A DNA stretch of 64,000 bases from a virus. Shown piece after piece: positions 1,730 through 61,320 of this stretch. The notes under the pieces are model-generated. The model was not told where the DNA came from, did no database searches, and saw only the letters and a program-made list of their open reading frames with translations. Within the stretch, counting starts at the first letter, position 1, and every line of letters begins with the position of its first letter. The position numbers were made by a program, and so were the translations under genes. Where the stretch lies: the IMG/VR virus record IMGVR_UViG_3300025000_002059, positions 1-64,000 of that record, one strand, 5' to 3'.

Positions 1730-1871
1730 AAATTTAGTGGGGGCGGTTCTAAAGGATCCACGAATAGCTTCCGCACTAGTTGGATTCTTGAGTGACGCTA
1801 GGGGGACTGCAGCGCAATAAGCCGGGCAGAGATGCGCACATTAAATCTTCTCAATTTGTGGAGATGAAATT

Positions 1872-3203: not shown

Positions 3204-3247
3204 ATTTTGGGCAAAATTGAAAATGATTTACAAAAGGAGTTGAGGTA

Positions 3248-3457
3248 ATGGATAAGCTATTAGAACACTGGCAAGCCATGGCGGTTATAGTACTTGAGGA
3301 AAGACAGATAGAAAAAGAGTGTTTGCGAACCAACATTAAGATTGATGTTGTCAAGCGGATAGCCGATTCAACGTCATGGTCCTTAAGGAAATCATTTGAA
3401 TTTTGCCTTCGCGAGAAGGAGGGAAATCAAAGATGGCCCTGCCAAATGATCCTTTAA
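3248..3457 (+). CDS. Hypothetical protein
   Basis: ORF with GAGG RBS between terminase and portal. Confidence 0.4.
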   Translation: MDKLLEHWQAMAVIVLEERQIEKECLRTNIKIDVVKRIADSTSWSLRKSFEFCLREKEGNQRWPCQMIL

Positions 3458-4758: not shown

Positions 4759-5681
4759 CGGTCATGTTTATATTTAGAGAGCCGAAAATTATCGAGATTT
4801 ACAAAGAGCGAGCAGAAGATATTGAATGGAGATCATTGCATGGGATAGCGGATCAGGCAAAGCCGGAGATGATCGAAGCATTCCAAAAAGCCGTAGAGCG
4901 GACCAAAGCCGATATGAATCTTACTGAATTAGAGCAAGCAATGCTGATAGCTAATGTGGAAATTGCTCTTAATACTATTCCGTGGGAAACATTTATTTCT
5001 GAACTTGCCAGTATAGGGATAATTTATAAGACTATCTTTGATAGGGCGGGAAATAAATCAATCGATTATCTGCCGGATGATATAGAACTTAAGGCAAGTT
5101 TTAATACTTTAAATCCTAAATCCTTGGATTATATTAAAGATCACACAGGGGAATTAATTGTGGAAATAACTGAGCAAACCCAATTAGCAGTAAGAGCAAT
5201 AATCAATGATGCGTTTATTGAAGGGTTACATCCTTATCAGTCCGCAAGGGAAATCAAAAAAATTGTTGGACTTACTGAGCGCCAAGCAAAAGCGGTCAAC
5301 AATCTCCGAAAGAGTTTGATTATCCAGAAATTATCAGACAAAGTTATCGAACAAAGAACGAAGGCGTATGCTCGCAGATTGCTTATTTACAGATCAAATA
5401 ATATTGCGAGAACCGAGACAATCAATGCAGCAAATAGAGGGCAACAAGCGCTATGGGAACAAACTGAGGAACAAGGATTAATTAATAGGGCAACGGCAAG
5501 ACGCAAATGGATTACAACACCAGATGATCGTTTGTGTCAGTGGTGTAAGTCATTGGATGGAAAAATAGTGGGGTTAGGTGAAGAATTTGGAACACCAATC
5601 ATTTCAGGGATCAATTATACAGCGCTCACACCAACCTTACATCCGAGTTGTAGGTGTGCACTTGGCCTAGTTTTTATCTAA
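4755..5681 (+). CDS. Head morphogenesis protein (Mu gpF/SPP1 gp7 family)
   Basis: IARTET, KWITTPDDRLCQWC..LDG and HPSCRC motifs. Confidence 0.9.
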   Translation: MTVMFIFREPKIIEIYKERAEDIEWRSLHGIADQAKPEMIEAFQKAVERTKADMNLTELEQAMLIANVEIALNTIPWETFISELASIGIIYKTIFDRAGNKSIDYLPDDIELKASFNTLNPKSLDYIKDHTGELIVEITEQTQLAVRAIINDAFIEGLHPYQSAREIKKIVGLTERQAKAVNNLRKSLIIQKLSDKVIEQRTKAYARRLLIYRSNNIARTETINAANRGQQALWEQTEEQGLINRATARRKWITTPDDRLCQWCKSLDGKIVGLGEEFGTPIISGINYTALTPTLHPSCRCALGLVFI

Positions 5682-5721
5682 AATTAAAAAACCATATTTA
5701 TTTTAGGGGGGTAAAATTTTT

Positions 5722-5997
5722 ATGGGAACACAGGACCATATTCTAAAAAGAACGATTGCTGAAGCTCATTATATCATCGAGAATCGAGCAACCATACGTG
5801 AAACGGCAGCAGCTTTCAATGTTAGTAAGAGCACCGTCCACAGAGACGTTAAAAAATTTCTAGAGGAATTAGATCTTAATTTATATGGTAAAGTTATCCA
5901 TATTATAGACATCAATCTTTCAGAGCGACATATGCGAGGTGGGGAAGCAAACAAGCAGAAGTCGATTGAGCGTCATGCAAAGGCCGTTAATCGATGA
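5722..5997 (+). CDS. spoIIID: Sporulation transcription regulator SpoIIID homologue
   Basis: YIIENRATIRETAAAFNVSKSTVHRD and N.SERHMRGGEANK match the SpoIIID signature. Confidence 0.88.
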   Translation: MGTQDHILKRTIAEAHYIIENRATIRETAAAFNVSKSTVHRDVKKFLEELDLNLYGKVIHIIDINLSERHMRGGEANKQKSIERHAKAVNR

Positions 5998-6350
5998 AGT
6001 ATCCGCCAATTATTGCAGTGGATTTCGATGGGACGATTACCAAGGAAAATGACTTTCCAAACTTAGGTGAACTTATGCCGGGGGCTAAAGAAGTCATAAA
6101 CGAATTACATTCATACGGATGCATTATCATTTTATGGACCTGTAGAACTGACAGTTATCTTGAACAAGCCATAAACTATTGCAACCAATGTGGAATTCAT
6201 ATTGACTATGCGAATCAGAACTATCCATCCATTCAGGGATATGCATACCCCAAAATATATGCCGATTATTATATCGATGATCTAAATATCGGGGGATTCC
6301 CCGGATGGCACAATGTCCGAGAAACCATATTCCAACGAGAGGGGTTTTGA
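5994..6350 (+). CDS. HAD-superfamily phosphatase-like protein
   Basis: IIAVDFDGTI, ILWTCR and KIYADYYIDD motifs. Confidence 0.8.
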   Translation: MKYPPIIAVDFDGTITKENDFPNLGELMPGAKEVINELHSYGCIIILWTCRTDSYLEQAINYCNQCGIHIDYANQNYPSIQGYAYPKIYADYYIDDLNIGGFPGWHNVRETIFQREGF

Positions 6351-6612
6351 TGGGCAAATGAGCGCTCTTAAAGTAAGTGTGGTATGTAGTTCATCAATTA
6401 TTCTTGAGTCCAAGAACCAAGCGATTGTAGACGACCTACTGAGAAAACCCATTATTCACCCGAGCACCATAAATCTAAAAGCGGTTAGATGTCCATACTG
6501 TAATAATTTACTTGGATTTCTGGATGGAACTGCTCAAATAAAATGCTATAAATGTAAATTCATACACCTTGAGGAAACTAGAGTCGCGCCGACGACCAAC
6601 GCATTGATTTAA
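6313..6612 (+). CDS. Mu Com-like zinc-binding regulator
   Basis: VRCPYCNNLLG..IKCYKCK; true start uncertain. Confidence 0.55.
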   Translation: MSEKPYSNERGFDGQMSALKVSVVCSSSIILESKNQAIVDDLLRKPIIHPSTINLKAVRCPYCNNLLGFLDGTAQIKCYKCKFIHLEETRVAPTTNALI

Positions 6613-6616
6613 AAAA

Positions 6617-8125
6617 ATGTGTTTGGTTTGTCGGCGTATTTTTGTTTTAAGGAGGAAGAGAGAGTTGCACGTTAAAGATTATGTAGATGCGATATTTAAT
6701 TCATTAAGAAATCTTTTATCAGATGATGAGATCAGCAAAATTGACAAAACAGAATTAATAAAAGATGTGTTACTCAACATAGAAAAAAAAGTATTACCAT
6801 TCGGAGATTTGCCACTTGCTGATAGGGATAGAGAGTGGGATGGTTCAGGAGCTGAAAGTAATATTCGCGAATGGGCCGGAGGCAAAGATAATTTGGATTG
6901 GGCAAAATATGGCAAAGGATTCTTGTGGGTTAATGATGAGGACAGGGAAAAGTTTGGTAGTTATAAATTTCCGATTGCCGATGTGATCGATGGAAAATTG
7001 ATTGCTATACCGAGGGGAATATTTGCAGCTGCTGGTGTTTTGAGTGGTGCTAGGTTAGAAGGTGGCGTGGGCCAATTAAATGTGCCAAAGGAAGACATAC
7101 AGGGCTTAAAGGATCATGTCGATAAGTACTATGCCAAGATGAGGAAAGAATGGGATGACGATAAGTTAGTTAGTCCGTTCAAGGAAAAACAAGTATTGGA
7201 AAAATTGATTGATTATAATCCAATGGTTCCTAGTTTTGGGAAGGTTAATTGTGAGATTGCATTTGTGGGGGCATCTCCGGGTAAGATTGAGTCGATAAGA
7301 GGTGAACCTTTCGTTGGACCGTCCGGTGAGACATTTAATGAGTTGTATCTTGGGCCATTAGGATTAAAGCGTGACGATATATTCCTTACTAATGTTGTGC
7401 CAGATTTACTAGTTGACGATATGGGCAATGCGAGAGAACCAAATAATAGGGAAGTTAGTGCTTGGAGCGGGTGGCTTGATGGCGAGATAGAACGATCTAA
7501 TCCTAAAGTTATTGTTGCTCTAGGAAAAATCGCAAAGAAAGCTCTTGGTGAAGACGTTGATTTTGTTTTGCCACATCCGATAGCTATCCGGAAGTATAGT
7601 AATTCAGGAGAAGTTGGAAGGAAGATAAAGCAAATCAAGTTAAAACTTGATGAAATTAACAAAGGTTTGCCTAGTGTTAATGATGTTCATGTACAAAGTA
7701 CAAGTTGGAAAAGACCAAGAAGGACACAGAAATCAGATAATCATTATAAAGATTATGCCGATATATTTAAGGCTGATGATGAAAAGCACCTTATTTATGG
7801 TGTAGTCTTAGAACCCGGTAGTGTCGATGCCCAGAATGATACTATAAGTGCAGAAGAAATTGAACGAGTGGCGCATGTTTATCTCCAAAATTCTAGAATT
7901 GTTGGCAATGGCCATAGATCAAAGGCGAAAGCTGATGTGGTCGAAAGTTTTATAGCGCCGATAAACTATGAATTTGGAAATCAAAAAATTACTAAGGGAA
8001 CATGGGTTATGGTAGTTAAAGTCAATGATGATAAATTATGGGAAGGTGTTAAGGAAAAATTGTATACAGGGTTCTCTATTGGCGGCTTTTCAAAGAGGAT
8101 TCTGGTGAATGAGCCAGCCAATTAA
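6617..8125 (+). CDS. Prohead protease (XkdF-like C-terminal domain) fused to a uracil-DNA glycosylase family-4-like domain
   Basis: Central FVGASPG..E...GEPFVGPSG, FLTNVV, PKVIVALGKIA and LPHP; C-terminal YGVVLEP..DAQND, VVESFIAP, GTWV and TGFSIGG. Confidence 0.75.
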   Translation: MCLVCRRIFVLRRKRELHVKDYVDAIFNSLRNLLSDDEISKIDKTELIKDVLLNIEKKVLPFGDLPLADRDREWDGSGAESNIREWAGGKDNLDWAKYGKGFLWVNDEDREKFGSYKFPIADVIDGKLIAIPRGIFAAAGVLSGARLEGGVGQLNVPKEDIQGLKDHVDKYYAKMRKEWDDDKLVSPFKEKQVLEKLIDYNPMVPSFGKVNCEIAFVGASPGKIESIRGEPFVGPSGETFNELYLGPLGLKRDDIFLTNVVPDLLVDDMGNAREPNNREVSAWSGWLDGEIERSNPKVIVALGKIAKKALGEDVDFVLPHPIAIRKYSNSGEVGRKIKQIKLKLDEINKGLPSVNDVHVQSTSWKRPRRTQKSDNHYKDYADIFKADDEKHLIYGVVLEPGSVDAQNDTISAEEIERVAHVYLQNSRIVGNGHRSKAKADVVESFIAPINYEFGNQKITKGTWVMVVKVNDDKLWEGVKEKLYTGFSIGGFSKRILVNEPAN

Positions 8126-9056
8126 GGATGGTGAGCATCAAATGTTAATCAATGAATTAAAAGATCTCAACGTGGAAGAAGTTTCGCTTGTAGGAAAACC
8201 CGCAAATCAAAGAAAATTTCTTTTATTAAAAAATCAAGAAGAAGGGAGCTGTAATGCAGAAATGTTAAATGAAATTTTAAAGTCTCTTAGTGAATTGGAT
8301 ATTGATCTTGAAAATGAGGAATCGCTTGAGAAAACAATGAAGGCTATGAAGTTAGATACTAATGCCGTTAAGGCCGTTAAGGGTGCGCTGAAATTGATGG
8401 AGGCGTATAAAGAGCAGATTCCAAAAGGGATTTTGGATAAACTCATGTCGATGATGATGGAGTATGAAGAGGGAATGGATTATATGGAACATTCCCAAAA
8501 AGAAAAAATGGGGGCAGGAAAGGAGAAAGAGAAAGGTATGGGCATGAATCCAGAAAAGAAAATTAAAAAGGAAGATGGCTCATTGGATTTGAGTGCTATT
8601 CCAGAAGAATCCCGCGAATTGGTCCAGATGTTATGGAAAGAACAGGAGACAGCGGTTAAGAAAGCTCAGGAATTAGAAACGATTCTTAAAGCGGAACGCG
8701 AAATAAGGATTGCTAAAGAGTTCTTAGATCGTGGGATTGCCTTCCCGAATATTGGGACAGCAGAAGCTGTTGGATCGGTTCTCAGGAAAGCCTACGATGT
8801 TTCCGAGGATTATGGAAAGCAACTAGAAGGTATCCTGAAAGATGCAAATACCAAGATCGAAAAGTCCGAGCTTTTTGTTGAAAAAGGTTCAAATGCAAGA
8901 TCATCGGCAGATACAACTTGGGCCAAGATTGAAGAACTGGCCAAGGGAATTGTCATCAAGGGTGAAGGTCAAACTATGGCGCAGGCGATCGATAGAGTTC
9001 TGGCCGAAAATCCAAAACTCTATGATGAGTACACCAAAGAAAGGAGCGGAAAATAA
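8109..9056 (+). CDS. Capsid scaffolding protein
   Basis: N-terminal EVSLV.KPAN, acidic coiled coil, located between protease and capsid genes. Confidence 0.65.
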   Translation: MSQPIKDGEHQMLINELKDLNVEEVSLVGKPANQRKFLLLKNQEEGSCNAEMLNEILKSLSELDIDLENEESLEKTMKAMKLDTNAVKAVKGALKLMEAYKEQIPKGILDKLMSMMMEYEEGMDYMEHSQKEKMGAGKEKEKGMGMNPEKKIKKEDGSLDLSAIPEESRELVQMLWKEQETAVKKAQELETILKAEREIRIAKEFLDRGIAFPNIGTAEAVGSVLRKAYDVSEDYGKQLEGILKDANTKIEKSELFVEKGSNARSSADTTWAKIEELAKGIVIKGEGQTMAQAIDRVLAENPKLYDEYTKERSGK

Positions 9057-39026: not shown

Positions 39027-39299
39027 AATGGAAAAGACTAGGTATATTATTACCAACTACTTGTCCGAAACATGTGATATAATGGCGGAAAGAAGAATAA
39101 AGCGAAAACCTCCAAGGACGGTAATCCTTGAAGGCTTTCTGGTCGAAGCATTGCCACCAGCAACGCTAAGATTTCAATATGGGAAATTGATACTTTTATT
39201 ATATCATTTCATGGTACAAAGTATCAAGGTAAATATTTGGAATTTTAAGCTGTCTGGCGAATGCGTTAGATAGCTTTTTATATTTGGAGGAAAGATGAG

Positions 39300-39575
39300 A
39301 TGTTGATGAAAATATCCAAGGATCAAAATTTAAGCATAGAAGCAAAGGGATTATATTTATATTTCTATTCATTTACGAAAAGTGGTCATGATGAATTTCC
39401 TTATGTAGGAGAGATACTTGAGGATTTAGGGATAAGCAAAACTAGATATTATAAGCATTTAAAATTATTGATTAATTCAGGGTATTTGAGACTAGGGCAA
39501 GATAAATTATCTGGAAAATATATAAGTAATTTTTATGAAGTTGTAATGAAGTATTCATTGGAGGGTAACAGATAA
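39300..39575 (+). CDS. Replication-initiator-type winged HTH protein
   Basis: LSIEAKGLY.Y...FP....I..DLGIS..RYYKHLK.L...GYL. Confidence 0.7.
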   Translation: MLMKISKDQNLSIEAKGLYLYFYSFTKSGHDEFPYVGEILEDLGISKTRYYKHLKLLINSGYLRLGQDKLSGKYISNFYEVVMKYSLEGNR

Positions 39576-39967
39576 TGTTTAGATTACCCAAACCGCAGAA
39601 AAATTATACAGAGGTGCCCAATGTAGTTTTTGATTTAGTAATTCCAAATATAACAAATCTTTCTGCATTGAAATGTTATCTTATTCTCATAAGAAAAACT
39701 TGGGGATGGGGTAAAATTGGTGATTGGATTTCAATGTCGCAAATAGTTAAATTAACAAAACTTGCACGGTCTAGTGCTGTTGTAGGAATGAAATGGTTAG
39801 AAGATAATGGATACATCTGGTCAGCAAAAGCTGGAATTCCGGGAAAAGAAAAAATTATGTATTTCTTGTGTTCAGAGGAAAATGAACTCATGGAAAGATC
39901 AGTTAAAGAAGGAATAATAAAGCCGGATAAATTATTTGAGCTTATGATGAAAGAACGAAAAGAATGA
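39575..39967 (+). CDS. Replication protein (lambda O-like N-terminal domain)
   Basis: NYTEVPN, LIRKTWGW.K..DWIS.SQ motifs. Confidence 0.75.
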   Translation: MFRLPKPQKNYTEVPNVVFDLVIPNITNLSALKCYLILIRKTWGWGKIGDWISMSQIVKLTKLARSSAVVGMKWLEDNGYIWSAKAGIPGKEKIMYFLCSEENELMERSVKEGIIKPDKLFELMMKERKE

Positions 39968-39968
39968 G

Positions 39969-40056
39969 TTATCCACAACCAGTCCGGAATTCGGATAGGT
40001 ATACTTATCCACAACCAGTCCGAATTCAATACCCCCCCAGTCCGGAATTCGGACAC
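39969..40056 (+). repeat. Putative replication origin: two DnaA boxes and three iterons
   Basis: TTATCCACA at 39969 and 40005; CCAGTCC(G)GAATTC three times. Confidence 0.7.
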
Positions 40057-40123
40057 ACAAAAGAAACCTATACAAGGTTTATACATCCTAATAATAATGA
40101 GAAAAAACTAAGGAGAAAAATTA

Positions 40124-41205: not shown

Positions 41206-41501
41206 TGCTAGTTAATGGAACTCCGGCTATTGCAGATATTAAGAGTCAGTGTTCAATTATTCCCGGATTTGAATTTAACTACATCGCTTACAAGGGGAAA
41301 GTATTGTGGAGCACGGTATCGGCATCGCTTGATGATTATTTCATTTATCTTTATGACGGACCAAATTATAAAAATGGGTGGGATCCATATACGGTAGCCT
41401 GCGTAGATGAACACGGTGATCTGTTTTACTACGGTCGCTGGACGAAATTAAAAAATGCACTTGCATGGCTTGCGGATCCAAACATGCCAGAAAGGGACTA
41501 A
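41202..41501 (+). CDS. Hypothetical protein
   Basis: Translationally coupled ORF. Confidence 0.45.
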   Translation: MMLVNGTPAIADIKSQCSIIPGFEFNYIAYKGKVLWSTVSASLDDYFIYLYDGPNYKNGWDPYTVACVDEHGDLFYYGRWTKLKNALAWLADPNMPERD

Positions 41502-41506
41502 AGCAA

Positions 41507-42268
41507 TTGGAGACACTAGCGGTAATAAACCAAAAGGGCGGCGTAGCCAAAACTACAACGAGCGTGAATATGGCGGCCATAATAGCCGCCATGGGATTCA
41601 AGACATTACTTATTGATGTGGATCCGCAAGCTAATCTTTCCCAATCCTTGGGCATTGTTGCCTTTGATATGGGAACACCTAATCTTTTCGAGGATCCGAA
41701 AATAACACTTAGCAAGTGCGTTAATGAAACAAGCATAACGAAATTATCCATTATTCCATCGGACCTATCACTAGCACAAGTTGAATGGGAACTTTTGAAA
41801 ACATTTAAAGGCACCAATACTTCTATTCTGCGAGACAAGATCAAGGCAAGTGAGGAAGAATTTGATTATTGCATTATCGACTGCCCGCCAAGCTTAGGAA
41901 TTTTCAGCCTTAATGCGCTCATTGCAGCGGACCGTGTGCTTATCCCGGTTGGTCTTGATCCGTTCGGATTGATTGGAATAAAGTATCTAGTGAGCACGAT
42001 CACTGATATCAGAATGAGTATAAACAAGCATCTCAAAATTCTGGGCATTGCACGGACCATGTGGGATATGCGGCAGAGACTTGGACGAGAAATCAGCGAA
42101 AGTATGGAAAAGGATTATCCGGGAAAAGTCCTTGAGACGATTATAAAAATGAATGTAAGCGTCAAGGAAAGTGCTGTTGCCCAAATGCCACTGGTCATTT
42201 ATGAGCCAAATGCTCCGGCTGCGCTGCAATACATTCAATTAACGAATGAAGTGTTACAGAGATGGTGA
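41507..42268 (+). CDS. parA: ParA/Soj partition ATPase
   Basis: NQKGGVAKTT, LLIDVDPQANL and IIDCPPSLG. Confidence 0.93.
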   Translation: METLAVINQKGGVAKTTTSVNMAAIIAAMGFKTLLIDVDPQANLSQSLGIVAFDMGTPNLFEDPKITLSKCVNETSITKLSIIPSDLSLAQVEWELLKTFKGTNTSILRDKIKASEEEFDYCIIDCPPSLGIFSLNALIAADRVLIPVGLDPFGLIGIKYLVSTITDIRMSINKHLKILGIARTMWDMRQRLGREISESMEKDYPGKVLETIIKMNVSVKESAVAQMPLVIYEPNAPAALQYIQLTNEVLQRW

Positions 42269-42543
42269 GAAAACAGGGTAGGCCAAATATTCAAGCAATG
42301 CTGGAAGGAATCGATCTGGATAATAAGGAAGTACAGGAAGAAAAGCCAGATAAGTCAGAGGTAGAAGCGATAGCTGAACCGGACTTAAATGAAAAACTAA
42401 AGCGATGCTATGTAGTAACAGGATTTCATCTTGAAAAAATAATGCTTCTAAAGACCAAAAAATACAGAAAATATGATATGAGCGAAATTGTCTGTATGGC
42501 GATTGATTCATTTTTTGAAAAAGAAATGAACGGAGAGAAGTAA
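42262..42543 (+). CDS. Small partition adaptor (type Ib ParG/omega-like)
   Basis: 93 aa overlapping parA; disordered N-terminus and C-terminal RHH-like MSEIV.MAID.FF. Confidence 0.6.
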   Translation: MVRKQGRPNIQAMLEGIDLDNKEVQEEKPDKSEVEAIAEPDLNEKLKRCYVVTGFHLEKIMLLKTKKYRKYDMSEIVCMAIDSFFEKEMNGEK

Positions 42544-42549
42544 TACAAT

Positions 42550-43308
42550 ATGATTGAAGAAATAGATGACCAAATATTTACCATGACAAGTGATCTCTCG
42601 GATGAAGAACTGGTCGATTTTGCAGCTGGGATATTTAAGAGCAATTGGAAAACATCATACGATTACCAGAAAACGGATCCTATTATATTTCAAAGCTTGC
42701 CGATCGATGGGAAAATACTTAAGCATACCGATTTTTTGTCTTCGGCTGTTTATATATCAGAACTAACACAAAAGGCATTATCCTATAGATGGAATGAGAT
42801 AGGAGGTCTAGCCGGGAAAGAACTGAAGGAGTGGGATGCCAATGGCGGCCTTTGTATTTATCTATCCATTTTGCATTTTTGTTTACTGCTGGAAAGCAAA
42901 GCCGTAAAAGAGAATGAACTATGCTTAGTCCAAGGATTTTATAGGCATCCAACACACGGAATACTCAGTATATTCTCAAATCTGGGAACTCAATGCGGAG
43001 TTCATGCCTTTATAAGCGTTCAGGGAGCGGTTGTTGATTTTTCGATACAGCAAGAAGCATCAACGTTCGAATTTGGAGAAAAAGAATTCATTATTGGCGA
43101 TATCCCAGATGAGATGGAGATGGTCGGCTGGACAGAAGGAAAGCATTTAGTCAAGCAATATGCGCGTGAGATAGCCCGGAGCAGCGGACTTAATTATTTT
43201 GAATGGATTGAACAGCACAAAATCAATTCATATAAACTTGCAAGCAAAGAACTTAACAAAGAGCTTGTAAGGCTTAAAAGATTATATAAAAGTTTGGAGG
43301 ATGAATGA
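42550..43308 (+). CDS. Hypothetical protein (possible papain/transglutaminase-like fold)
   Basis: GLC, VHAF and VVD could form a Cys-His-Asp triad; 3 bp upstream of the tas-like gene. Confidence 0.4.
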   Translation: MIEEIDDQIFTMTSDLSDEELVDFAAGIFKSNWKTSYDYQKTDPIIFQSLPIDGKILKHTDFLSSAVYISELTQKALSYRWNEIGGLAGKELKEWDANGGLCIYLSILHFCLLLESKAVKENELCLVQGFYRHPTHGILSIFSNLGTQCGVHAFISVQGAVVDFSIQQEASTFEFGEKEFIIGDIPDEMEMVGWTEGKHLVKQYAREIARSSGLNYFEWIEQHKINSYKLASKELNKELVRLKRLYKSLEDE

Positions 43309-43311
43309 GCG

Positions 43312-44367
43312 ATGGCTAGGAAAAAGAATGAAGAAGAAGTCACCCTAACCAATCAGGAAATGATTCAAAAAGAAGAGCGCCATAGAAAAGATTTAGAAAA
43401 TAAACTAAAGGCATCGGAAGCATCAGCGGAAGATCAGAAACAATTTACTCCCTTGGTCAAACTTACTAAGGATTTAAGAAGCGCAAGCCGGACATTGAAT
43501 CCACAAGAAGCCCGGTATCTAGTGGACAGGTACTACCAAATCCAACAATACCGGACCAGCGCCAAGAATCAGATTAGAGCATCGGAAAGCGAAGAACCAA
43601 ATGAAGTTATTGTCTGGTTTGCAGAGAACTTTGAGGAACTGGAGAAGAACATAAAAAAGGCGCTGGATGCTTATACGAGTAGTCATCCGGTCGGAGCTTG
43701 GGCCAAATCGGTGATCGGCGTAGGTCCGACATTCGCAGCCGGGCTTCTAGCGCACATTGATGCGAAGAAAGCACCAACAGCCGGAGCCGTGTGGAGTTAC
43801 GCAGGATATAATCCAAGTGTTGAATGGTTAAAAGGTCAGAAGCGTCCATGGAATGCTGATTTAAAAAAACTATGTTATCTCATAGGTGAATCATTTGTAA
43901 AGGTTTCCAATAATCCTAAAGATATCTATGGTAAATTATATCGCCAAAGAAAAGATCAGGAGATAGCGAAGAATATAGCGGGAGAATTTGCGGAACAAGC
44001 AATATCAAAGCTGGAGAAATTCAAGATAGGTAAAGATACTGATGCTTACATATGGTATGCAGGATGTCTGACTGAAGATAAAGCCAGAGCAATTCTTCTG
44101 GGTGAAAAATCCGGATCAGCCAAAAGTCTAGCGGGAGAAAAGGATTCTGGGATTCGTATGCTTCCACCAGCACATATCAACGAGCGGTCCAAGCGATATG
44201 CTGTTAAAATATTCCTAGCCCATTTTCATGAGGTCTTATTTGAATATGAATTTGGGACCAAGCCACCAAATCCATATGCTATCTCAATCCTGGGACATGC
44301 ACATAAGCTGGAAGTTCCAAACTATGAAGTATTTAAAAAAGCGATGGAAGAAGATCCGTCACTATAG
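43312..44367 (+). CDS. TasA-like Nop-domain RNA-binding protein (IS110 C-terminal-related; no RuvC or HNH domain)
   Basis: Coiled coil, then SVIGVGP..AAGLLA.I, AVWSYAGY, WN..LK, YGKLY..RK and H...RSKRYAVKIFL; no DEDD domain; TIGR-like array begins at its stop codon. Confidence 0.8.
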   Translation: MARKKNEEEVTLTNQEMIQKEERHRKDLENKLKASEASAEDQKQFTPLVKLTKDLRSASRTLNPQEARYLVDRYYQIQQYRTSAKNQIRASESEEPNEVIVWFAENFEELEKNIKKALDAYTSSHPVGAWAKSVIGVGPTFAAGLLAHIDAKKAPTAGAVWSYAGYNPSVEWLKGQKRPWNADLKKLCYLIGESFVKVSNNPKDIYGKLYRQRKDQEIAKNIAGEFAEQAISKLEKFKIGKDTDAYIWYAGCLTEDKARAILLGEKSGSAKSLAGEKDSGIRMLPPAHINERSKRYAVKIFLAHFHEVLFEYEFGTKPPNPYAISILGHAHKLEVPNYEVFKKAMEEDPSL

Positions 44368-45107
44368 CCAAGTTACTTTGATTTTAAACAAAGCCATTGA
44401 GCGAACCATCAGACAAGAGAGTATCAACAATAGAAGAGTGAGCCAACAAGCGTGAGCTAATTGCATCCCATAAAAGCGAGCCACTAACCATGAATTATGC
44501 AACGAAAGAAAGCGAGCCATAGCAACAGATTACCCCATCTCGACGAGAGCGAGCCAATGGTCTATGAAAGCAGAATTGACCATCAAACAAGAGTGAACCG
44601 TGTGCAAAGATTGTATCAATTAGGAGAAGTGAGTCATTAGATTAGAATAGCACCATATCCGCAAAGCGAGCCGTTAGATCAGAAATTTATTTTATTCATT
44701 CCCATTGAGTGAGCCAAGAGCCAAGGTATACGAAAGCACCAACAACAACGAGCGAGTCATCCGATATGAAATTAGATACAAATGCGTTGAGCGATCCAAA
44801 ATGAATTGTAGCGAAACAAAGCGAACCATGGGTATGGAGAAATACCATTTATCTCCGAGTGAACCAAAAAATTAGAATAAATCGCCAAAGTAGAGTGAGC
44901 CATATGAAATAGATTAAATCACACTCTAAGAGCGAGCCAAGCTAACTTAATATAAAATGAACGAACCAGAATGCTTGATTGGGACAAAAATAACGAGTGA
45001 GCCACTAAAGGGAATTATAATATTTAATCAAAAAATGCAATGAGCGAAACAAAATATTTTGATCGAACCATTATAAAGGAGATATTCCGGGGATAACGAG
45101 TGAGTCA
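44366..45107 (+). ncRNA. TIGR-like dual-repeat array, block 1a (about 20 units)
   Basis: Example: AACCA-tcagacaa-GAGAGTATCA-acaatagaa-GAGTG|AGCCA-acaagcgt-GAGCTAATTGCA-tcccataa-AAGCG|AGCCA; period about 36 nt. Confidence 0.85.
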
Positions 45108-45118
45108 TGCAGGAAAGC

Positions 45119-45402
45119 GTGATGGGATGTTGGCTTAGAAGCAGCCATGGCTGGAAGGCTGATTGCTTTATGCAATCCATCTAAGGAGTGGGGCGATGGC
45201 TATTTGTGACTTGATTGTTTTTCCACATTATTAGCAATCTGAACCCGATGAGGGAAAATGAATGTGGTAGTGTTACGATGATACCGATGCATTTGTAGTG
45301 ACAAGGTAACATAAAAGCTGCAAATGAAGGAAAGCGTATAGCTTGGGAGTTGCTTTAGAGTTACACTTGGTTATCCCTTTTGGCGTAATAGCACACCATC
45401 AC
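45119..45402 (+). ncRNA. Structured RNA mimicking 23S rRNA H43/H44 (L11-binding GTPase centre)
   Basis: GGATGTTGGCTTAGAAGCAGCCA (45125-45147), CATCTAAGGAGT (45178-45189) and GCGTAATAGCACAC (45383-45396), closed by GTGATGG/CCATCAC. Confidence 0.7.
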
Positions 45403-45404
45403 AT

Positions 45405-46251
45405 GAGTCATGCGGAATGATTGAACGAAATAGTGAGTGAACCATCAATAATGACCGGAACATTGTGTCAGAGTGAGCCACGATATAAGAATAGCAACAT
45501 TAATAGTTGGAGCGAACCAATCAAGCCGAAAATTAACATTCCCTATGAGTGAGTCAGGTATATTTATGAAAAATATGAACGAGTCGAAGGAAGTAAGGGT
45601 ACCAATCTCATAGAGCGAGCCATAAGGAATAATGGCAACATCACAGGAAAGCGAACCACTAATAGCGAGTTACATCATTATACGAGAGTGAACCGTCAGA
45701 AGCGAAACTAAGTATCATATATTCAGAGTGAATCGGGATATTGGAGAGCACCACACATACTGAGTGAATCAGGACTATGGAAAGCAGCAGATAAGCCGAG
45801 TGAGCCGAATAATGGGATAGCACCACGCTGGTTAAGCGAGCCATTGAAGGAAATAGGATCAGAAATGCAGAGCGAGCCGCAGGATGTAAAAGCACAATAA
45901 AAAGAGAGCGAGCCAGACCAACCGAAAGCAGTATTGAGCGAGAGCGAGCCAGAGGAAAAAGATTAATTCATTGCAGGACAACGAGCCATAACTACAGATT
46001 AACGACAAGATTATAAGAGCGAACCAAAATCACGCTTAAATAAAATTGAAACATTAGCGAGTGAGTCATAGGACTTGATTGAATCACCCCATCGGAGCGA
46101 TCCATATTAAGCGAGAATAACCAGCGTAGGTTGAGTGAGCCAAATGGAAGCGAGAGTACCAATTGCATAGAGTGAGCCAGAACTGGTGATTAAAATCATT
46201 AATGCGAGAGCGAACCATGGCAAGAGAGGACCACAAATATAGAGTGATTCA
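45405..46251 (+). ncRNA. TIGR-like array, block 1b (about 23 units by length)
   Basis: Example: AGCCA-aatggaagc-GAGAGTACCA-attgcata-GAGTG|AGCCA. Confidence 0.85.
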
Positions 46252-46268
46252 AAAGCGAGGAATTATCG

Positions 46269-46553
46269 ATGAGAGATTTAATCAGTTATGATGAGATGCT
46301 AGAAAACAAGGATAAGCTAAAAACCATATTCCTCGATTTCAAGGCACGGTATTATGCTTTGGGCAAGAAGCAGAATGGAAAATTTAAAACGAGTGATCTT
46401 GACCGATTAATCCGGGAGACGATCGCAGAATTAAAAGGCAAAGAAAAACTTATTGCCGAAGGATTTCTGGAATTCGTGCTGGGATTTTTATTCAACAGCT
46501 CGTGGGATTCTACGAAGGCTTTTAATTCTGTAGATAAAATGTTTAACTGGTAG
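46269..46553 (+). CDS. Hypothetical protein embedded between array blocks
   Basis: GAGG RBS; flanked by TIGR-like repeats. Confidence 0.6.
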   Translation: MRDLISYDEMLENKDKLKTIFLDFKARYYALGKKQNGKFKTSDLDRLIRETIAELKGKEKLIAEGFLEFVLGFLFNSSWDSTKAFNSVDKMFNW

Positions 46554-46561
46554 ATAAATTT

Positions 46562-46992
46562 AGCCAAAACAGATGATAGTATCACGGCATCCAAGCGAAC
46601 CATTGACTATCGCCGGAAAGCGAGCCAATTCACACGACTAAAAACAAGATACTGAAGCGAACCAGAGGAAAAGACTATTTCATTACAGGAAAGTGAGCCG
46701 GACCAATTGATAAATACATTAAATGAGAGTGAGCCACGGTTAGGGACAATTTCAATTATTAGAAGCGAGTCAAACAGATAAGATTTCCATTTAAAGAGAG
46801 CGATCCATTTCAGATGACAGTAACAGCCTTTACGAGTGAGCCAGAAAATAGGATAGCATCATTATGCGAAAGCGAGCCAAGTGCATGAAGATATAAACCA
46901 TTAAACGAGATCGAACCAGTAGACAAGGAAAGTATCATGATCATAAAGTGAGCCAAACACCATGATTAGTAACATTATGGACAAGCGGACTA
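46562..46992 (+). ncRNA. TIGR-like array, block 2 (about 12 units)
   Basis: Same edge and loop repeats, e.g. AGCCA-aaacagat-GATAGTATCA-cggcatcc-AAGCG|AACCA. Confidence 0.85.
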
Positions 46993-47016
46993 ATACACCC
47001 TTGGGAGGTGGAACGA

Positions 47017-47454
47017 TTGGACCACGAAATATCATACCCAGAAAAGAAATGTCCCGGATGCGGAAATGATAATCTACTGGATGGACCGCGAGGTGGACTA
47101 TCTCAAAATGTCTTATGCCCGGAATGCCAAAGAGAATGGAACTATGGACCATTTGGGTATGAAGAAATCAGCCCGGCACGAACATACTTATACCGAGTTG
47201 TGTCTCCAAAACTTGATCTGCGGATCATCCCAGTAGGATGCAAGCCGGGATGCTGTGGGGAAACATATCCATGCATTGATGAGGTAGCCATGATTATAGA
47301 ACAGGGCAATCTTGCCTTTATGATTCACGGCGAGCACGTTAAGGAGCAGTTAGAGAAACTAGAATACAGAATTGATGTAACGAGTCATAACAACATACCG
47401 ATTGGAATGTATATATCTGAAAAGGGATCAAAAAGCGTGTACGAAAGATTTTAG
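47017..47454 (+). CDS. Zinc-ribbon protein embedded between array blocks
   Basis: CPGCG..LLDGPRGGLSQNVLCPEC; GGAGG RBS. Confidence 0.6.
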   Translation: MDHEISYPEKKCPGCGNDNLLDGPRGGLSQNVLCPECQREWNYGPFGYEEISPARTYLYRVVSPKLDLRIIPVGCKPGCCGETYPCIDEVAMIIEQGNLAFMIHGEHVKEQLEKLEYRIDVTSHNNIPIGMYISEKGSKSVYERF

Positions 47455-47672
47455 CCAGCACATGAGAAAATCCAGAGATCGTGAGCGAATCAATTGATGA
47501 AAAAAGCAACATTACTCCGGAGTGAACCGATTGAAATGATGATCCATTGACCAAGAGTGAGCCAATATCTATGAGCCACCCAATTTAAAGTAGCGAGCCA
47601 TCCCAAAGGATTTTTCAATTCCACGGAAGCGAGCCATTATAAGGCGATATTTCAGTCCACGGGAGCGATCCA
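47453..47672 (+). ncRNA. TIGR-like array, block 3 (about 6 units)
   Basis: Starts at the TAG of the upstream ORF; same repeats. Confidence 0.8.
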
Positions 47673-47711
47673 ATTCACCAGTCTAATATTTCTTGGAGTG
47701 AAAATATTTTT

Positions 47712-48086
47712 ATGGATAGACTGCGAAATGAGCGAAAGGCCAACGGTTTATGTGCTCAATGTGGAACTAAACTTGATAGGATTGGGAGATATTGCAAAAA
47801 ATGCAATACTTCAGGGAATATTAATAAGCACAAACGTTGCCTAAAGCTTTATGCAATCGGTTTATGTACTACTTGCGCTGAGCCATTAGACAGAGATGGT
47901 TGGTTTTGCTCAAGGTGTGCAAACAACTTAAAACTTAGGGCAAGAGTTAGAGACACAGAAAGAAGATTAAAAGGATTATGCGTTCAGTGTGGCGCTTGGG
48001 CAGATGGGTATTCCTATTGCCAACGCTGCAGGGATATGAGGATGGAGAGATATCACTCAAAGAAAAGGTCCATTCACCAAGAGTGA
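47712..48086 (+). CDS. Multi zinc-finger protein embedded between array blocks
   Basis: Three repeats of GLCxxC...CxxC. Confidence 0.7.
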   Translation: MDRLRNERKANGLCAQCGTKLDRIGRYCKKCNTSGNINKHKRCLKLYAIGLCTTCAEPLDRDGWFCSRCANNLKLRARVRDTERRLKGLCVQCGAWADGYSYCQRCRDMRMERYHSKKRSIHQE

Positions 48087-48310
48087 GTGAGCCAATATTG
48101 GATTTTTACATTAGAGAAAGAGCGAATCAAACAGATATTATTTTTCAGATACCAAGAGTGAGCCAATTATGATGACAGAAACAACCCAAGAAAGCGAGTC
48201 AATGAATACGAACTTTATCAACAGATATGAAGCGAGCCATAACAATGAAGTATAACCATCATCCAAGAGCGAGCCTAAGCAATTGATCACCCCACACTCA
48301 CTGAGCGATT
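48085..48310 (+). ncRNA. TIGR-like array, block 4 (about 6 units)
   Basis: Same edge and loop repeats. Confidence 0.8.
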
Positions 48311-48944: not shown

Positions 48945-49289
48945 ATGTTTTTTAAGCTTTGCAATCATAGAGAAATTGATCCAGATGAAAGACTTAGTGT
49001 TATTATTGGAAGTGGATCGGATGATGAATTTGAAACTCACAATCCTTTAAATTTATTTGGGGCAATTATTAATGATTATGATCCGGATTCAGGTGTTCCG
49101 ATTATTCCTCTTGTCGTTGGACAAATTAGTCCGGGAATGTTGATGTCTTATCTATCGGCCATGACAACAATTGCTGTCGAGATGTTAAAGGATACAGATA
49201 TACCGAGAGAAGTATTAAAGGAATTATTGCAAAGAGCTGTTGATGAAGGACTGAATGGAAAAATTGTTCCGTGCAAGTGCCAGAACTAG
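48945..49289 (+). CDS. Hypothetical protein
   Basis: AGGAG RBS and intact ORF. Confidence 0.5.
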   Translation: MFFKLCNHREIDPDERLSVIIGSGSDDEFETHNPLNLFGAIINDYDPDSGVPIIPLVVGQISPGMLMSYLSAMTTIAVEMLKDTDIPREVLKELLQRAVDEGLNGKIVPCKCQN

Positions 49290-49480
49290 CCGATAGAGAT
49301 ATCGGCTTTTATTTTGTTCAAATATGAATGTAACAAAATATGTGAATTGTTACATTGGGGGCTTAAACATGGATGTGGCAAGGATGGTAATAATTGAATG
49401 TAACTTAGGGCGTAGAAATGATACATGGAATGTAGTATAATGAAGGACAAGCTTAATAAAAAGAGAGGAATTAAAAATTC

Positions 49481-57782: not shown

Positions 57783-57989
57783 ATGGCTTTGACACTTTGG
57801 TCCGGCAGAGGAACATGGGAAGGCTGGAAAATACGGAAGCAATATCAAGGCTGCAAATTTGGAGAGTCCGTCCTTGTGGATCCCGATGGAGTGCCATACA
57901 GTCCCAGCGATATACTAGCGAGCAGAAATTCTGCAAATCTTTCTGAAAAAGAGAAAATTAATAAAAGCAATAAATCGATAAAGGAATAA
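57783..57989 (+). CDS. DUF3653-like small phage protein
   Basis: G.WEGWKI...LVDPDG..YSP.DI; GAGG RBS. Confidence 0.45.
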   Translation: MALTLWSGRGTWEGWKIRKQYQGCKFGESVLVDPDGVPYSPSDILASRNSANLSEKEKINKSNKSIKE

Positions 57990-58525
57990 ATCCATAAATC
58001 CATATAAGAATATATCGATACATCCATAAAGGAATATTTGCTGAAGATTCTATTTAATAGACAGAATGAAAGAATTGGATTTTGTTTATAAGTTTAGGAT
58101 TTTATGTAAATATTCCATTTTTTAGTGATTGCGTATCGATATCCATATATCAATATATCCATATATCCATACGGAGCATAATTATCGTAAGAATCAATTC
58201 CTGATCGCGACGAGTAGCCTAACATTTTCTGTCAAATTGTCTAAGAGTGTATTCCTATCCATATATCAATACATCCATATATCAATACAAGAGGGACTTA
58301 TGGACCAAATATGTAATTTAATGGATTCTTTCAAATTGTAGGCAAACAGAATATTCTCAAATCTATACATCAATAAATCCATATTTCCATAAATCAATAT
58401 ATCGATAAATCAATACAGACCATTTTCGTGAGATCACGAAAATGATAAAAATATAACCATATAAGTTATAAACGGCAATTATAACTCATACGGTTATATT
58501 TTCGATTTTATGGATATTTATGGAA
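57963..58525. repeat. Clusters of tandem 8-bp repeats (TA[A/T/C]ATC[C/G/A]A), candidate parS centromere
   Basis: e.g. TATCGATATCCATATATCAATATATCCATATATCCATA at about 58133-58170; similar at 57970-58030, 58255-58290 and 58362-58415. Confidence 0.55.
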
Positions 58526-58709
58526 ATTATCAGGGGTAATAATTAGAACATCGCTGGCAGACTTCCTCATCAAAATTTTCCCGGTAACAGAATTTATCTT
58601 GGTTATATCGACAAACGAGAAAAAATTCTTTTCCAGTTAAGCAGAGTGGGGATCCGCAGCCAAGCGGAAAATCATCGCACCCATCGCACATTTCATTTTC
58701 ACATCCCTA

Positions 58710-58718: not shown

Positions 58719-59403
58719 AATTACATAGGACAAGTATAAGCCATGAACTGCGATTAAATCAATTATTGTAAGCGAGCCAAGAATAGAGATTTTACAGAAT
58801 TTTGAGCGAGTCAACTAGGTAGATTTTTTCAAATGTCCAAAGCGAACCAAAGCGCTTGAGAGCGCCAAAATTGGCAAGTGAACCATCAGTAGCAATAGTG
58901 CCAAACTATCAGAGTGAGCCAAAGTATTTGAGTTAAAATCATAAAAAGGTAAGTGAGTCATCGAACCAGATTATAAACATTGAAGAATAGCGAACCATTT
59001 TTGATTAAGAGAGTGAGTCAAAGTTTCCGATCGTACCTAAGTAAGGGAGCGAGTCCAAAGGTTTTTCAGTGTACCAGAAAGAGGGAGCGAGTCATACCAA
59101 ACAGAAAAAAGAACGAACCACGAACATAGACTTATTCATTTTACGAGAGTGAGCTAATAATGCCGATAGCAACAAAAACAGTGAACGAGCCAAGAATACT
59201 GAGAGTACCATATTTCGAGAGCGAGCCAGTAAGATGGGTATTTCCAAAAAAGAGAAGCGAGCCAAGAACTCTGATATCCCAGACCAAGCAAGCGAGTCAA
59301 GGTTTCCGACCATACCCAAACGTAAGGGATCGAGTCAAGGTTTCCGAGTGCACCGAAATTAGGGATCGAGACATGATAGCTGATTTAATCGTAAATAATG
59401 ATC

Positions 59404-59436
59404 GTTTCAATCCACGCACCAGAAATGAGGTGCGAC
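59404..59436 (-). CRISPR. Solitary type I-C-like CRISPR repeat (not an array)
   Basis: Minus strand GTCGCACCTCATTTCTGGTGCGTGGATTGAAAC; stem CGCACC/GGTGCG; ATTGAAAC end. Confidence 0.75.
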
Positions 59437-59839
59437 AATAAATATAAGTGAGCCAGCTGCATTGAGATTACCAATGTAGAGAAGCGAACCAACGAATGTG
59501 ATTAGTTTACAATTGAAGAGTGAACCACACGATAAGATGTCACCGTATGTTTGGAGTGAGCCAAAGAATTAAAAAAACATTATATGCAAGCGAACCAAAA
59601 ACCTTAGACAATATCAAACCCCAAGAGTGAGTCAAGCTTTCCGAGAGGTCCAGAACGGATGAACGAATCATGTTTCGTGAGAGCACCAGAAACATGGAGT
59701 GAGCCAAGAACACTGAGATACCAATTGCGAGAGAGCGAGCCAATAACTACGATCGATCACTGAAAAGAAGCGAACCAGTGTTGCTGGATTTGAGCAAAGT
59801 CTCTGAGTGAGTCATGGAGACAGGATAAGATCCAAATAT

Positions 59840-59874
59840 GTCATGACTTTCTATTAGTCGTGTGGGATTGAAAC
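59840..59874 (+). CRISPR. Solitary CRISPR-like repeat (not an array)
   Basis: GTCATGACTTTCTATTAGTCGTGTGGGATTGAAAC; stem CATGACT/AGTCGTG; ATTGAAAC end. Confidence 0.65.
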
Positions 59875-61283
59875 ATAGCTGCTAAACGAGCCAAAATATA
59901 GAATAGCAACATTAATAGTGGAGCGAACCATGGCGAATGATAATGACAATTTCCATTGAGTGAACCATTAGGAATGAGAGAACCAGTTAAATGAGTGAAC
60001 CATGTATCGTGAAAAATTTCAAGCGTTACGAGTGAGCCAACAGAGTTAATCATTACAATTGTTCAGAGCGAATCATTAAACTTGATTGTATCAGAGGTTA
60101 GAAGTGAATCAATGGGACGGAGAGTACCACAAACCATTAGTGAGCCATTCAATCGGAGAGCACCGTAAAGAACGAATCATAAGCGGCGAAAGAATCAGAA
60201 CCTCGAAGTGAACCATGTATTGTGATATTTCATAATCTGTGAAGTGAGCCATCATTAGGGATTGTTTCAATTATTAGGAGTGAACCACTTTTTGTGAGAA
60301 ACACAGCGATATAAGGGTGAGCCAAGAACACCGACAGTCAACAAAGCCACAAAGCGAACCAATGTTGGAGAGAGCACCGTGCCATTCGAGTGAACCGATG
60401 TCGCACCATTTTTAAACAGAGCGAGCCAATGACGATGGAGAGCACCATGATCACGGAGCGAACCACCATTAGGGATAGTAACATATTTTTGGAGTGAGCC
60501 GAGGATACTGACATTTAAACCAGATGGAAAGAGTGAGCCAAAGTATCCGAATACAACAACCTTCTAGAGCGAGTCACCCCACAAGAGCACACCCATGTCC
60601 GTTAAGCGATCCATCAAGGCATAGAGCACCATCAAGCATGAGTGAATCGACATTCGTGAGATACCCAATACTTGTGAGTGAGCCAGCATATCTGAATATT
60701 TCAATAGTCGTGAGTGAGCCACTGCCGCAAGATAATACCATGTCCATAGAGCGATCCACTACGCAAGATAGCACCACAACTGTAGAGTGAACCATCGGGG
60801 AGAATTAATCATCGGTTAGAAGTGAGTCATTAAACTTGATAGCACCATATCCGCAAATCGAGCCAATCATGCTGAATATTTCAATGAGCCAGAGTGATCC
60901 AATTATTTAGATCGAATCAATAAATCTGAGTGACCAAAAATGAACAAAGAAGTCTTACAATATGGCAACATATGTGATAATGTATGGATAAGCCAACGCT
61001 GCTGGCGAACTTGACTAGAGTACCAGATGCCAGCAAAACGAGTCGACAATGATGAGTGACCAACAATAATGAGCGTAAAAATTGAACAAAAAAATGACCT
61101 TCGCGGAGTTTGCACCTCCCGAAAGTCGTGGCTAAAGACCAAACTCTTTAGACTTGAAATTTAAATCTAAGGACGGAACCCTTAGACTTAAGTACTTAAT
61201 TTGGATTAAGTATAACAAAGGATACTCAACGAATCAAGGGGGACAAGGGTAGTATCATTTGTAATATTTTCAAATAAAAGTAA

Positions 61284-61320
61284 AGTCGGGTCAGTATCTT
61301 TAGCTGGCCCGGCTTTTTTT
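61284..61320 (+). terminator. Rho-independent terminator
   Basis: AGTCGGGTCAG...CTGGCCCGGCTTTTTTT. Confidence 0.65.

Follow-up and report, generated by a model that had tools for sequence, protein, structure and literature searches.

A probable nuclease-free TIGR-TasA system with three guide array regions in a tailed phage

The tasA gene and its array regions

We analysed the first 64,000 nucleotides (nt) of the 87,959-bp virus record IMGVR_UViG_3300025000_002059 (hereafter the window), in which tasA, a gene for a 351-amino-acid (aa) protein (43312..44367, + strand), runs directly into rows of short repeats and paired spacers. An earlier reading, made from the sequence alone, had taken the region 43312..48310 for a TIGR-Tas-like RNA-guided system, consisting of a nuclease-less Nop-domain protein and dual-spacer arrays. 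Our analysis indicates that the locus is very probably a dual-repeat TIGR-TasA system of a tailed phage, acting as a nuclease-free RNA-guided DNA binder or blocker; as far as its sequence can be tested, it has every feature of such systems.

The protein consists of an N-terminal helix, a coiled coil and a Nop domain, and was recognised by NCBIfam, phmmer and fold comparison. The curated NCBIfam hidden Markov model NF052498 (TIGR_Tas_endo) scored 191.5 bits against a cut-off of 100, compared to 27.7 bits against a cut-off of 140 for the IS110 model NF033542, and Pfam Transposase_20, the IS110 C-terminal match, stayed below its threshold (17.6 versus 21.3). Pfam detected neither a nuclease domain nor a DEDD domain in the protein. 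Among PDB sequences, phmmer matched 9mty_A, a chain of the TasR-tigRNA-DNA structure, at 1.4e-12 and TasH at 7e-8. An AlphaFold2 model built with 33 homologues (predicted local distance difference test score, pLDDT, 84.7) contains helices only and no strands. The structure prediction and comparison that the sequence-only reading had proposed came out in its favour: the model's ten best Foldseek matches were all TasH or TasR chains, with IS621 at E 2.6e-3, and VIA-align, run against 48,161 representative chains, ranked TasH first (Z 18.6, 218 residues, root-mean-square deviation 3.5) and TasR second (Z 17.5, 193 residues, root-mean-square deviation 2.6), followed by the IS110-family recombinase ISCro4 (Z 12.2) and by unrelated coiled coils at 8.6 or lower. 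The IS110/IS621 bridge-RNA recombinases therefore enter the comparison through a homologous RNA-binding Nop-like domain; they differ in using a single bridge RNA and in joining an N-terminal DEDD RuvC-like domain to a C-terminal catalytic serine domain, whereas here a guide array is found and no DEDD domain. The alignments start at TasR residue 112 and TasH residue 66, past the nuclease domains of both proteins, and residues 1-61 of the model are helices only. Because RuvC and HNH are lacking, the model is all-helical and the alignment starts past the TasR and TasH nuclease domains, we assign the protein to TasA, in agreement with the earlier claim of a Tas-family Nop-domain protein without RuvC or HNH. 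The motifs on which that claim was built are present as well, namely GVGP..AAGL at residues 136-145, WSYAG at 161-165 and YRQRK at 210-214.

Tyr322 and His329 of TasA align with Tyr289 and His296 of SpTasH, each pair being 7 residues apart (MAFFT; SpTasH was translated from its GenBank record). In SpTasH these residues are described as the catalytic pair for metal-independent precursor processing (NAR 2026, PMC13421893). Across the 33 homologues His329 is invariant and Tyr322 is at least 90% conserved, and the loop that carries them has low model confidence, as expected of a flexible loop. Tyr322 and His329 thus form a putative guide-processing pair, in a C-terminal Tyr/His loop of the kind that dual-repeat systems conserve.

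The protein family is large, with 3,286 matches at E<=0.001 in a word-indexed search and 2,892 cluster representatives in a full scan, and most members are 265-320 aa long. At 77-79% identity, TasA is also present in four virus records of IMG/VR, 82-88 kb in length, and we refer to them as the relatives. A near-identical allele, P0002 (a public metagenome protein of 581 aa), carries a 229-residue insertion directly before Cys188, with flanks at 97% and 96% identity to TasA (window 43312-44364). The insertion has precomputed Hint/intein Pfam domains and is therefore read as an intein in tasA.

Parsing the DNA into units placed all arrays on the + strand and divided region 1 into five blocks, which are separated by a 337-nt unit-free stretch and three small open reading frames (ORFs). 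Block 1a (44362..45107) begins in the tasA stop codon, as the sequence-only reading had noticed; the stop TAG lies inside a 5′-truncated first edge repeat, ..TAGCCA. Block 1b (45435..46251) follows the 337-nt stretch, and the gap 45100-45440 has no significant fold (z -1.33). Next come a 94-aa ORF of unassigned family (46269..46553, + strand) and block 1c (46556..46955), whose first edge, TTTAGCCA, is truncated and comes 8 nt after the ORF's stop codon. A 148-aa Cys-rich ORF (47008..47454, + strand) has its stop TAG within a truncated edge TAGCCA at the start of block 1d (47452..47672). The last of the three ORFs, a 124-aa double-zinc-ribbon ORF (47712..48086, + strand; Pfam DZR 4.4e-8), ends with its stop TGA inside an edge repeat of block 1e (48085..48276), the last block of region 1.

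Two further array regions lie downstream. Region 2 holds 48 units (58770..61045), 14.4 kb downstream of tasA, and region 3 holds 6 units at genome positions 71,870-72,200, outside the window (about 7,970-8,300 of locus L083). Region 3, which is up to 28 kb from tasA, opens where an epimerase-like gene (70874-71857) has its stop codon and ends just before a DNA methyltransferase-like gene (72218-73423; PHROG 359, 4e-58). A tblastn search of TasA against the whole genome found a single tas gene, and no second one at region 2; one tasA gene serves three array regions.

A consensus scan for terminator-like hairpins marked the first strong + strand site after region 1 at 49288..49307, the preceding one at 39247-39276 and, after region 2, a hairpin of 14 pairs with a T run at 61282..61316 (+ strand). 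The scan found no strong + strand site between 39.3 and 49.3 kb, nor between 49288-49307 and 61282-61316. As pattern matches, these spacings are compatible with co-transcription of genes and arrays. Just upstream of region 2, at 57964-58528, are iteron-like tandem repeats of 8, 16 and 24 nt (ATATCCAT / ATAAATCC) and a 20-pair inverted repeat, which may be a replication origin or a partition site.

The interleaving of genes and arrays raises the alternative that TasA merely locates a target and that a separately encoded nuclease or effector, from the genes embedded in or abutting the arrays or from the methyltransferase-like gene at region 3, cleaves or modifies it. Small genes, two of them zinc-ribbon genes, do alternate with the array blocks and have stop codons in common with edge repeats, and region 3 does end just before the methyltransferase-like gene. 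However, the embedded ORFs are not kept inside the relatives' arrays: homologues of the 148-aa ORF sit downstream of the array, the 124-aa ORF was not found in the four related loci, and the 94-aa ORF has no homologue there and no Pfam, PHROG or NCBIfam match. Moreover, a published TasA represses alone (10.64898/2026.09.09.750476). We consider a separate effector very unlikely.

Unit structure and covariation of unit ends

The repeats stand far above chance and on one strand. The motif G[CT]GA.[CT]C[AG] has 128 + strand matches in the window, compared to 13 on the whole - strand, and 107 of the 128 fall in 44401-48232 and 58772-60894. The longer motif AGYGARYCA occurs 91 times in the window, versus 3.23 +/- 1.84 expected from 100 dinucleotide-preserving shuffles, none of which reached 91; its copies are almost entirely on the + strand and 36-37 nt apart. 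Intervals between consecutive array motifs (n = 106) are 36 nt in 42 cases, 37 nt in 19 and 34-39 nt in 80.

Column-wise information content of the 42 exact 36-nt units resolves the layout into an edge repeat RA-GYGARC-CA (10 nt), 8 variable positions, a loop repeat GA-N6-CA (10 nt) and another 8 variable positions, which we call spacer A and spacer B. The loop interior (N6) is weakly conserved. In the same profile the edge and loop repeats have a common frame, (G/A)A-N6-CA, with box C-like and box D-like motifs alike in both, as the binding of a symmetric dimer would require. A tolerant parser counted 108 units genome-wide, of which 54 belong to region 1, 48 to region 2 and 6 to region 3. Among the 97 units with a clean loop, 58 have spacers of 8+8 nt, 63 a 10-nt loop and 53 a length of exactly 36 nt. 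The earlier claim of edge/loop dual-spacer units of about 36 nt thus stands, with 36 nt as the modal unit, and the array is dual-repeat by the published definition of TIGR arrays, which calls for two different repeats of 8-12 nt in alternation, short spacers of about 9 nt between them and a place beside tas (PMC12045711). The estimate of about 100 guides holds when regions 2 and 3 are counted; within 43312..48310, to which it had been applied, there are 54 units (47 with a clean loop).

The array is genuine DNA rather than an assembly artefact, because contigs of an independent second study reproduce 43558-46115 with 2 differences. Low-depth contigs from two runs that join array positions differently were dropped as evidence, their sides being shorter than 40 nt at 85% likeness. 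A Shine-Dalgarno-like bias in spacer A was also dropped (7 of 97 versus 4.1 expected, p 0.1). The arrays fall outside the definition of CRISPR, having two kinds of 10-nt repeat and 8-nt spacers compared to identical 25-36-nt repeats with spacers of similar size, and no Cas family appears among the PHROG matches of 51 window and 18 genome ORFs or the Pfam matches of the ORFs scanned.

The processed guide of published systems has a base pair between its 5′ and 3′ ends, which come from two different edge repeats, and covariation supports this pair (Faure 2025, PMC12045711). We compared position 7 of the upstream edge with position 4 of the downstream edge of one unit and counted G:C 53 times, G:T 7 times, A:T 39 times and A:C 0 times (Fisher 1e-20). 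The same two positions showed no association inside a single edge repeat (p 0.22) or across two units (p 1.0), and the four relatives show matching covariation, with A:C counts of 0, 0, 1 and 1. Therefore, each unit acts, or is selected, as one discrete RNA. The covariation also points to a processing site between edge positions 4 and 7, which we infer from the repeats themselves.

These counts bear directly on the alternative that the repeats do nothing as RNA and are either inert tandem DNA or decayed remains next to a domesticated IS110-type gene. That reading can appeal to general annotation tools, as Tandem Repeats Finder hardly sees the arrays (one 2.2-copy 36-nt row), Rfam gives 0 matches at gathering score in them and Pfam sees in the protein a sub-threshold IS110 C-terminal match only. 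The unit-end covariation, which recurs in five phages, refutes it unless some DNA-level process with a reach of exactly one unit period could create such a pattern; the units also lie all on one strand, spacer pairs are conserved far above shuffled pairings, and tasA is conserved with its processing pair intact. We give it virtually no probability.

The ParA operon, conserved guides and target searches

The conserved block upstream of tasA has a ParA-like partition ATPase (41465..42268, + strand) as its first recognisable gene, supported by Pfam AAA_31 (1.5e-50) and CbiA and by PHROG 164 (2.5e-60); its NCBIfam matches of ParA/RepA type are below equivalog cut-offs. The gene keeps its position in 4/4 relatives. 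Between parA and tasA lies a 93-aa ORF of unassigned family (42262..42543, + strand), also kept in 4/4 relatives at 40-47% identity and free of Pfam, PHROG or NCBIfam matches; judged by its position alone, it is a possible small centromere-binding partner of ParA. Directly upstream of tasA is a 252-aa ORF, likewise of unassigned family (42550..43308, + strand), which has no Pfam, PHROG or NCBIfam match and, in an AlphaFold2 model of pLDDT 66.7, no PDB fold match at E<=0.001. Its residues Cys102, His152 and Asp163 are invariant in 5 sequences and lie at a helix start and on strands, an arrangement reminiscent of a papain- or transglutaminase-like triad, and the Atlas gives weak transglutaminase-like leads (0.86-0.87). 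We tried and rejected this ORF as ParB-like, as no fold matched at E<=0.001 and a LapG-type cysteine protease appeared only at E>1. No ParB-like gene was recognised next to tasA, either by Pfam, PHROG and NCBIfam (both ORFs) or by fold (252-aa ORF). The order in the relatives is HTH (helix-turn-helix) regulator, ParA, 93-aa ORF, 252-aa ORF, tasA and array, the 252-aa ORF adjoining tasA in 3/4 relatives and lying elsewhere in the fourth. The tasA gene thus sits in a conserved ParA operon.

The rest of the genome is that of a tailed phage. PHROG matches outline a siphovirus-like structural module (large terminase, portal, major head protein, tape measure and distal tail protein), and RecE/RecT-like genes, DnaD- and DnaC-like loaders, HTH regulators and a 180-aa tyrosine recombinase were also found. 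At 81,604 the record repeats its first 200 nt, and its unique length is therefore about 81.6 kb; the end of the record (81604-87959) repeats its start (1-6356) over about 6.4 kb, as terminal redundancy or circular assembly overlap would. Megablast gave no match among 50,697 GenBank phage records, and protein-level matches there are distant only, at <=34% identity, to Salicola phage CGphi29 and mycobacteriophages. The phage DNA was found in five groundwater and sediment metagenome runs from 2 studies, all on record as DNA. A Eubacterium sp. metagenome-assembled genome, the sole match in species-representative genomes, was rejected as host, since 50% identity is too distant.

Two observations concern replication and partition genes elsewhere in the genome. 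At genome positions 67350-68717 (locus L083 3451-4818) a ParB-like N-terminal domain is fused to a DNA methyltransferase (PHROG 498, 3e-145; ParB-like PHROGs at about 1e-39); its distance from tasA is large, and it does not represent a neighbour of the TasParB type. At window 39900-40100, repeated peptide motifs in overlapping ORF translations on both strands suggest direct DNA repeats beside a replication-initiator-like gene (39575-39967).

Given this neighbourhood, TasA and its guides could be a partition or maintenance module of a plasmid-like phage, which tethers the element to many host-chromosome sites or excludes incompatible relatives, in place of a role in general repression. The position of tasA downstream of parA and two small conserved ORFs in 4/4 relatives (one ORF relocated in one), the stretch from 39.3 to 49.3 kb free of strong + strand terminator-like sites, and the finding that PHROG, Pfam and NCBIfam scans showed no full-length integrase, only the 180-aa tyrosine recombinase, all speak for such a module. 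Faure 2025 also describes TasA operons with a ParB-like gene and a TasR that strongly inhibited plasmid maintenance in E. coli (PMC12045711). However, gene order alone proves no common function, no ParB-like protein was recognised beside tasA, the related phages' loci contain no match to any guide, which makes exclusion of close kin less likely, and the plasmid-like persistence is itself something that we infer. We therefore regard a partition role as unlikely.

The relatives allowed us to compare guides as well as genes. Each relative has several array regions on one strand; a pattern of two edges 26-30 nt apart matched 66, 43, 24 and 49 times, and both the other strand and the reversed control gave 0 matches. 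Across 392 guides from the five phages, 97 pairs (within-genome pairs included) are alike at >=14/16 spacer positions, versus 2.15 for shuffled A/B pairings. For 27 of the 86 evaluable guides of this phage there is a counterpart in the four relatives, namely 11/42 in region 1, 16/40 in region 2 and 0/4 in region 3.

We then compared how the parts of a unit diverge. Spacer A is identical between genomes in 67 pairs, versus 1.75 by chance, and in these pairs spacer B has 0-1 differences in 46 and >=3 in 16. The loop interiors of the pairs are 70% identical at equal length and differ in length in 25 pairs, and identical spacers are seen with different loop interiors. Therefore, conservation of the spacers is no lower than that of the loop interiors, and some half-guides have been re-paired. 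When two relatives were aligned by position, whole units were found inserted or deleted, with identities of 0.88 for the edge, 0.75 and 0.73 for the spacers and 0.66 for the loop interior.

For one guide family, xxGTTAGG / ATTATTAG, both A/B orders exist in different phages (window 46727 and 60242; L085:1252, L088:1269, L090:2126 and L084:3208). Both-order guides amount to 8 pairs versus 0 in controls, and since all belong to this single family, the 8 pairs count as one event. By dimer symmetry, both A/B orders would address one duplex site.

A third of the clade's guides thus persists as loop interiors drift, whole units are gained and lost, and half-guides are re-paired. These features would suit a reading in which the roughly 100 guides are largely inherited, selected addresses and not a CRISPR-like adaptive memory, and in which, given the fixed place of tasA in the ParA operon, they provide hard-wired multi-site DNA binding for maintenance of the element or for silencing conserved host or rival genes. 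We put this forward tentatively, as a possibility that we hold to be doubtful.

In all target searches we tested both half-site orders, with the reverse-complemented spacer A placed either before or after spacer B. These searches bear on the proposal that the guides regulate the phage's own genes, for example in a lysis-lysogeny or early-late switch. HTH regulators lie beside the arrays, which are found in the early, replication and regulatory parts of the genome, and regulation of the viral life cycle is among the roles proposed for TIGR systems (10.64898/2026.09.09.750476). Nevertheless, the 97 guides in two arrangements have 0 matches at <=1 mismatch in their own genome outside the arrays, and the 12 and 18 matches at 2 mismatches compare to 21 +/- 12 for shuffled pairings. 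A second search with 86 guides and four geometries, including same-strand ones, with gaps of 0-8 found 0 exact self-targets, and the arrays themselves hold 0 targets at <=1 mismatch for any guide. Self-regulation is accordingly highly improbable in our view. In the related phages' loci, guide matches arose only from shortened patterns and at control level. Because no self-match was found and a third of the guides is kept between relatives, the targets are most likely outside the phage, in the host or in rival mobile elements.

Proposed mechanism and relation to known systems

We propose that the system works as a nuclease-free DNA binder through the following steps. The arrays would be transcribed together with neighbouring genes, as each block begins where the preceding gene stops, on its stop codon or beside it. 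TasA would bind the box motifs and cut the precursor inside each edge repeat, between positions 4 and 7, by means of Tyr322 and His329, and cutting would free guides of about 36 nt with the order ARCCA, spacer A, loop, spacer B and RAGYG. A TasA dimer with one guide would then open a 16-bp DNA site, at which one strand would pair with spacer A and, in the adjacent half-site, the opposite strand with spacer B. Because it has no nuclease, the complex would stay bound, and may thereby block transcription or replication.

Published experiments make these steps plausible. TasA binds 36-nt RNAs (PMC12045711) and represses transcription in a guide-dependent manner (preprint 10.64898/2026.09.09.750476). 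The role in RNA-guided DNA binding and repression that the sequence-only reading had suggested would thus match what was found by experiment on another TasA (10.64898/2026.09.09.750476). MbTasA and the catalytically dead TasR repressors (Xu et al. 2026, 10.64898/2026.09.09.750476) display the nuclease-free, guide-dependent DNA binding that we propose here; the dead TasR proteins differ in belonging to stem-loop systems without the Tyr/His processing loop, whereas the present dual-repeat system keeps that loop.

Several points weigh against this reading or limit its reach. A poor loop in 11 of the 108 units and several irregular inter-unit stretches mean that some units are possibly non-functional. 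Transcription, processing and the 36-nt size are carried over from published systems, and the MbTasA repressor was tested beside stem-loop TasR proteins and not with a dual-repeat array like the present one (10.64898/2026.09.09.750476). The absence of self-matches alone is not significant, as controls gave about 1.5 matches at 1 mismatch. One conserved guide (unit 46655) searched against IMG/VR in two orders returned 23 and 46 loci, which may all be chance matches and, after clustering, were mostly near-identical redundant contigs; four candidate contigs compared with 356 guides showed no enrichment for further guides. The bipartite target search that had been suggested with the earlier reading has therefore yielded no target, neither in the phage's own genome or the relatives' loci nor, for the one guide searched, in IMG/VR. 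Chance matches of 16-nt sites swamp large collections, and the preprint says likewise (10.64898/2026.09.09.750476).

Compared to published systems, the locus belongs to the known TIGR-TasA kind and represents no new subtype or mechanism. A close likeness is to the dual-repeat TIGR-TasA systems, for example that of Flavonifractor plautii (FpTasA; PMC12045711), which likewise have a solo protein of coiled coil and Nop domain, alternating edge and loop repeats, two short spacers, a period of about 36 nt, a 5′-truncated first edge and a terminator-like hairpin (here after region 2), and are phage-borne. The present system differs from that type in its spacers (8+8 nt here, 9+9 nt as published), in its box frame (GA...CA here, UG...CCA as published), in the interleaving of genes with array blocks and in its size, with about 100 units divided among three regions that reach up to 28 kb away from tasA, compared to the published 'most often 5 to 15' beside the gene (PMC12045711).

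SpTasH of Salicola phage CGphi29 (PDB 9w03 and 21kl; PMC13421893) is the best structural match and resembles the present system in its 16-nt spacer total and in a Tyr/His pair aligned residue for residue. It shares about 31% identity over 137 residues with our TasA and differs in having an N-terminal HNH nuclease and cutting DNA, whereas the protein here has only helix before the coiled coil. The tasParB-tasA operons (Faure 2025, PMC12045711) are alike in that tasA is operonic with a partition-type gene, repeats are 10 nt long, and arrays lie upstream, downstream or between genes; they differ in that the partition gene here is ParA, and the ORFs between parA and tasA are not recognised as ParB-like. 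'ParA' as a whole word is absent from Faure 2025 (PMC12045711), and our literature search found no paper linking TIGR or TasA with ParA or phage-plasmids. A looser analogy, drawn in Faure 2025 (PMC12045711), is to nuclease-free CRISPR systems (type IV and type V-M), in which an RNA-guided binder of a mobile element also interferes without cutting; these differ in their unrelated proteins, a single long spacer on one strand and known adaptation machinery.

The sequence-only reading had further suggested a divergent subtype, on account of the short spacers and the variable loop repeat, and this suggestion did not survive comparison. For the Salicola phage system a spacer total of 16 nt has been reported (PMC13421893), TasParB-linked TasA arrays have 10-nt repeats (Faure 2025, PMC12045711), and edge and loop box motifs that diverge yet covary are described as normal (PMC12045711). 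The locus is instead unusual in degree, in the number of its guides, in their spread over three regions and in having a ParA instead of a ParB neighbour. A 2026 survey lists 65,635 guides in 4,126 dual-repeat arrays (10.64898/2026.09.09.750476), which by division is an average of about 16 guides per array. The locus may already be contained in table S1 or figs S4 and S14 of Faure 2025, or in TIGRSafari.

TIGR-Tas was described in 2025, and Faure 2025 analysed 5-kb flanks (PMC12045711). The arrays at 14 and 28 kb from tasA lie past such flanks, and survey guide counts may therefore be too low. Natural targets and the gain of guides in TIGR arrays are stated open questions in both sources (PMC12045711; 10.64898/2026.09.09.750476), and the value of the present clade is in comparative data on guide conservation and array turnover: in five near-complete phage genomes with 392 guides, unit-end covariation, conservation of one-third of the guides and turnover of whole units can be read from sequence. 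For a search for natural targets, the conserved guides offer the best starting point as soon as genomes of hosts from these habitats exist. If the guides are indeed inherited addresses, the clade would offer the first comparative handle on the evolution of TIGR arrays.

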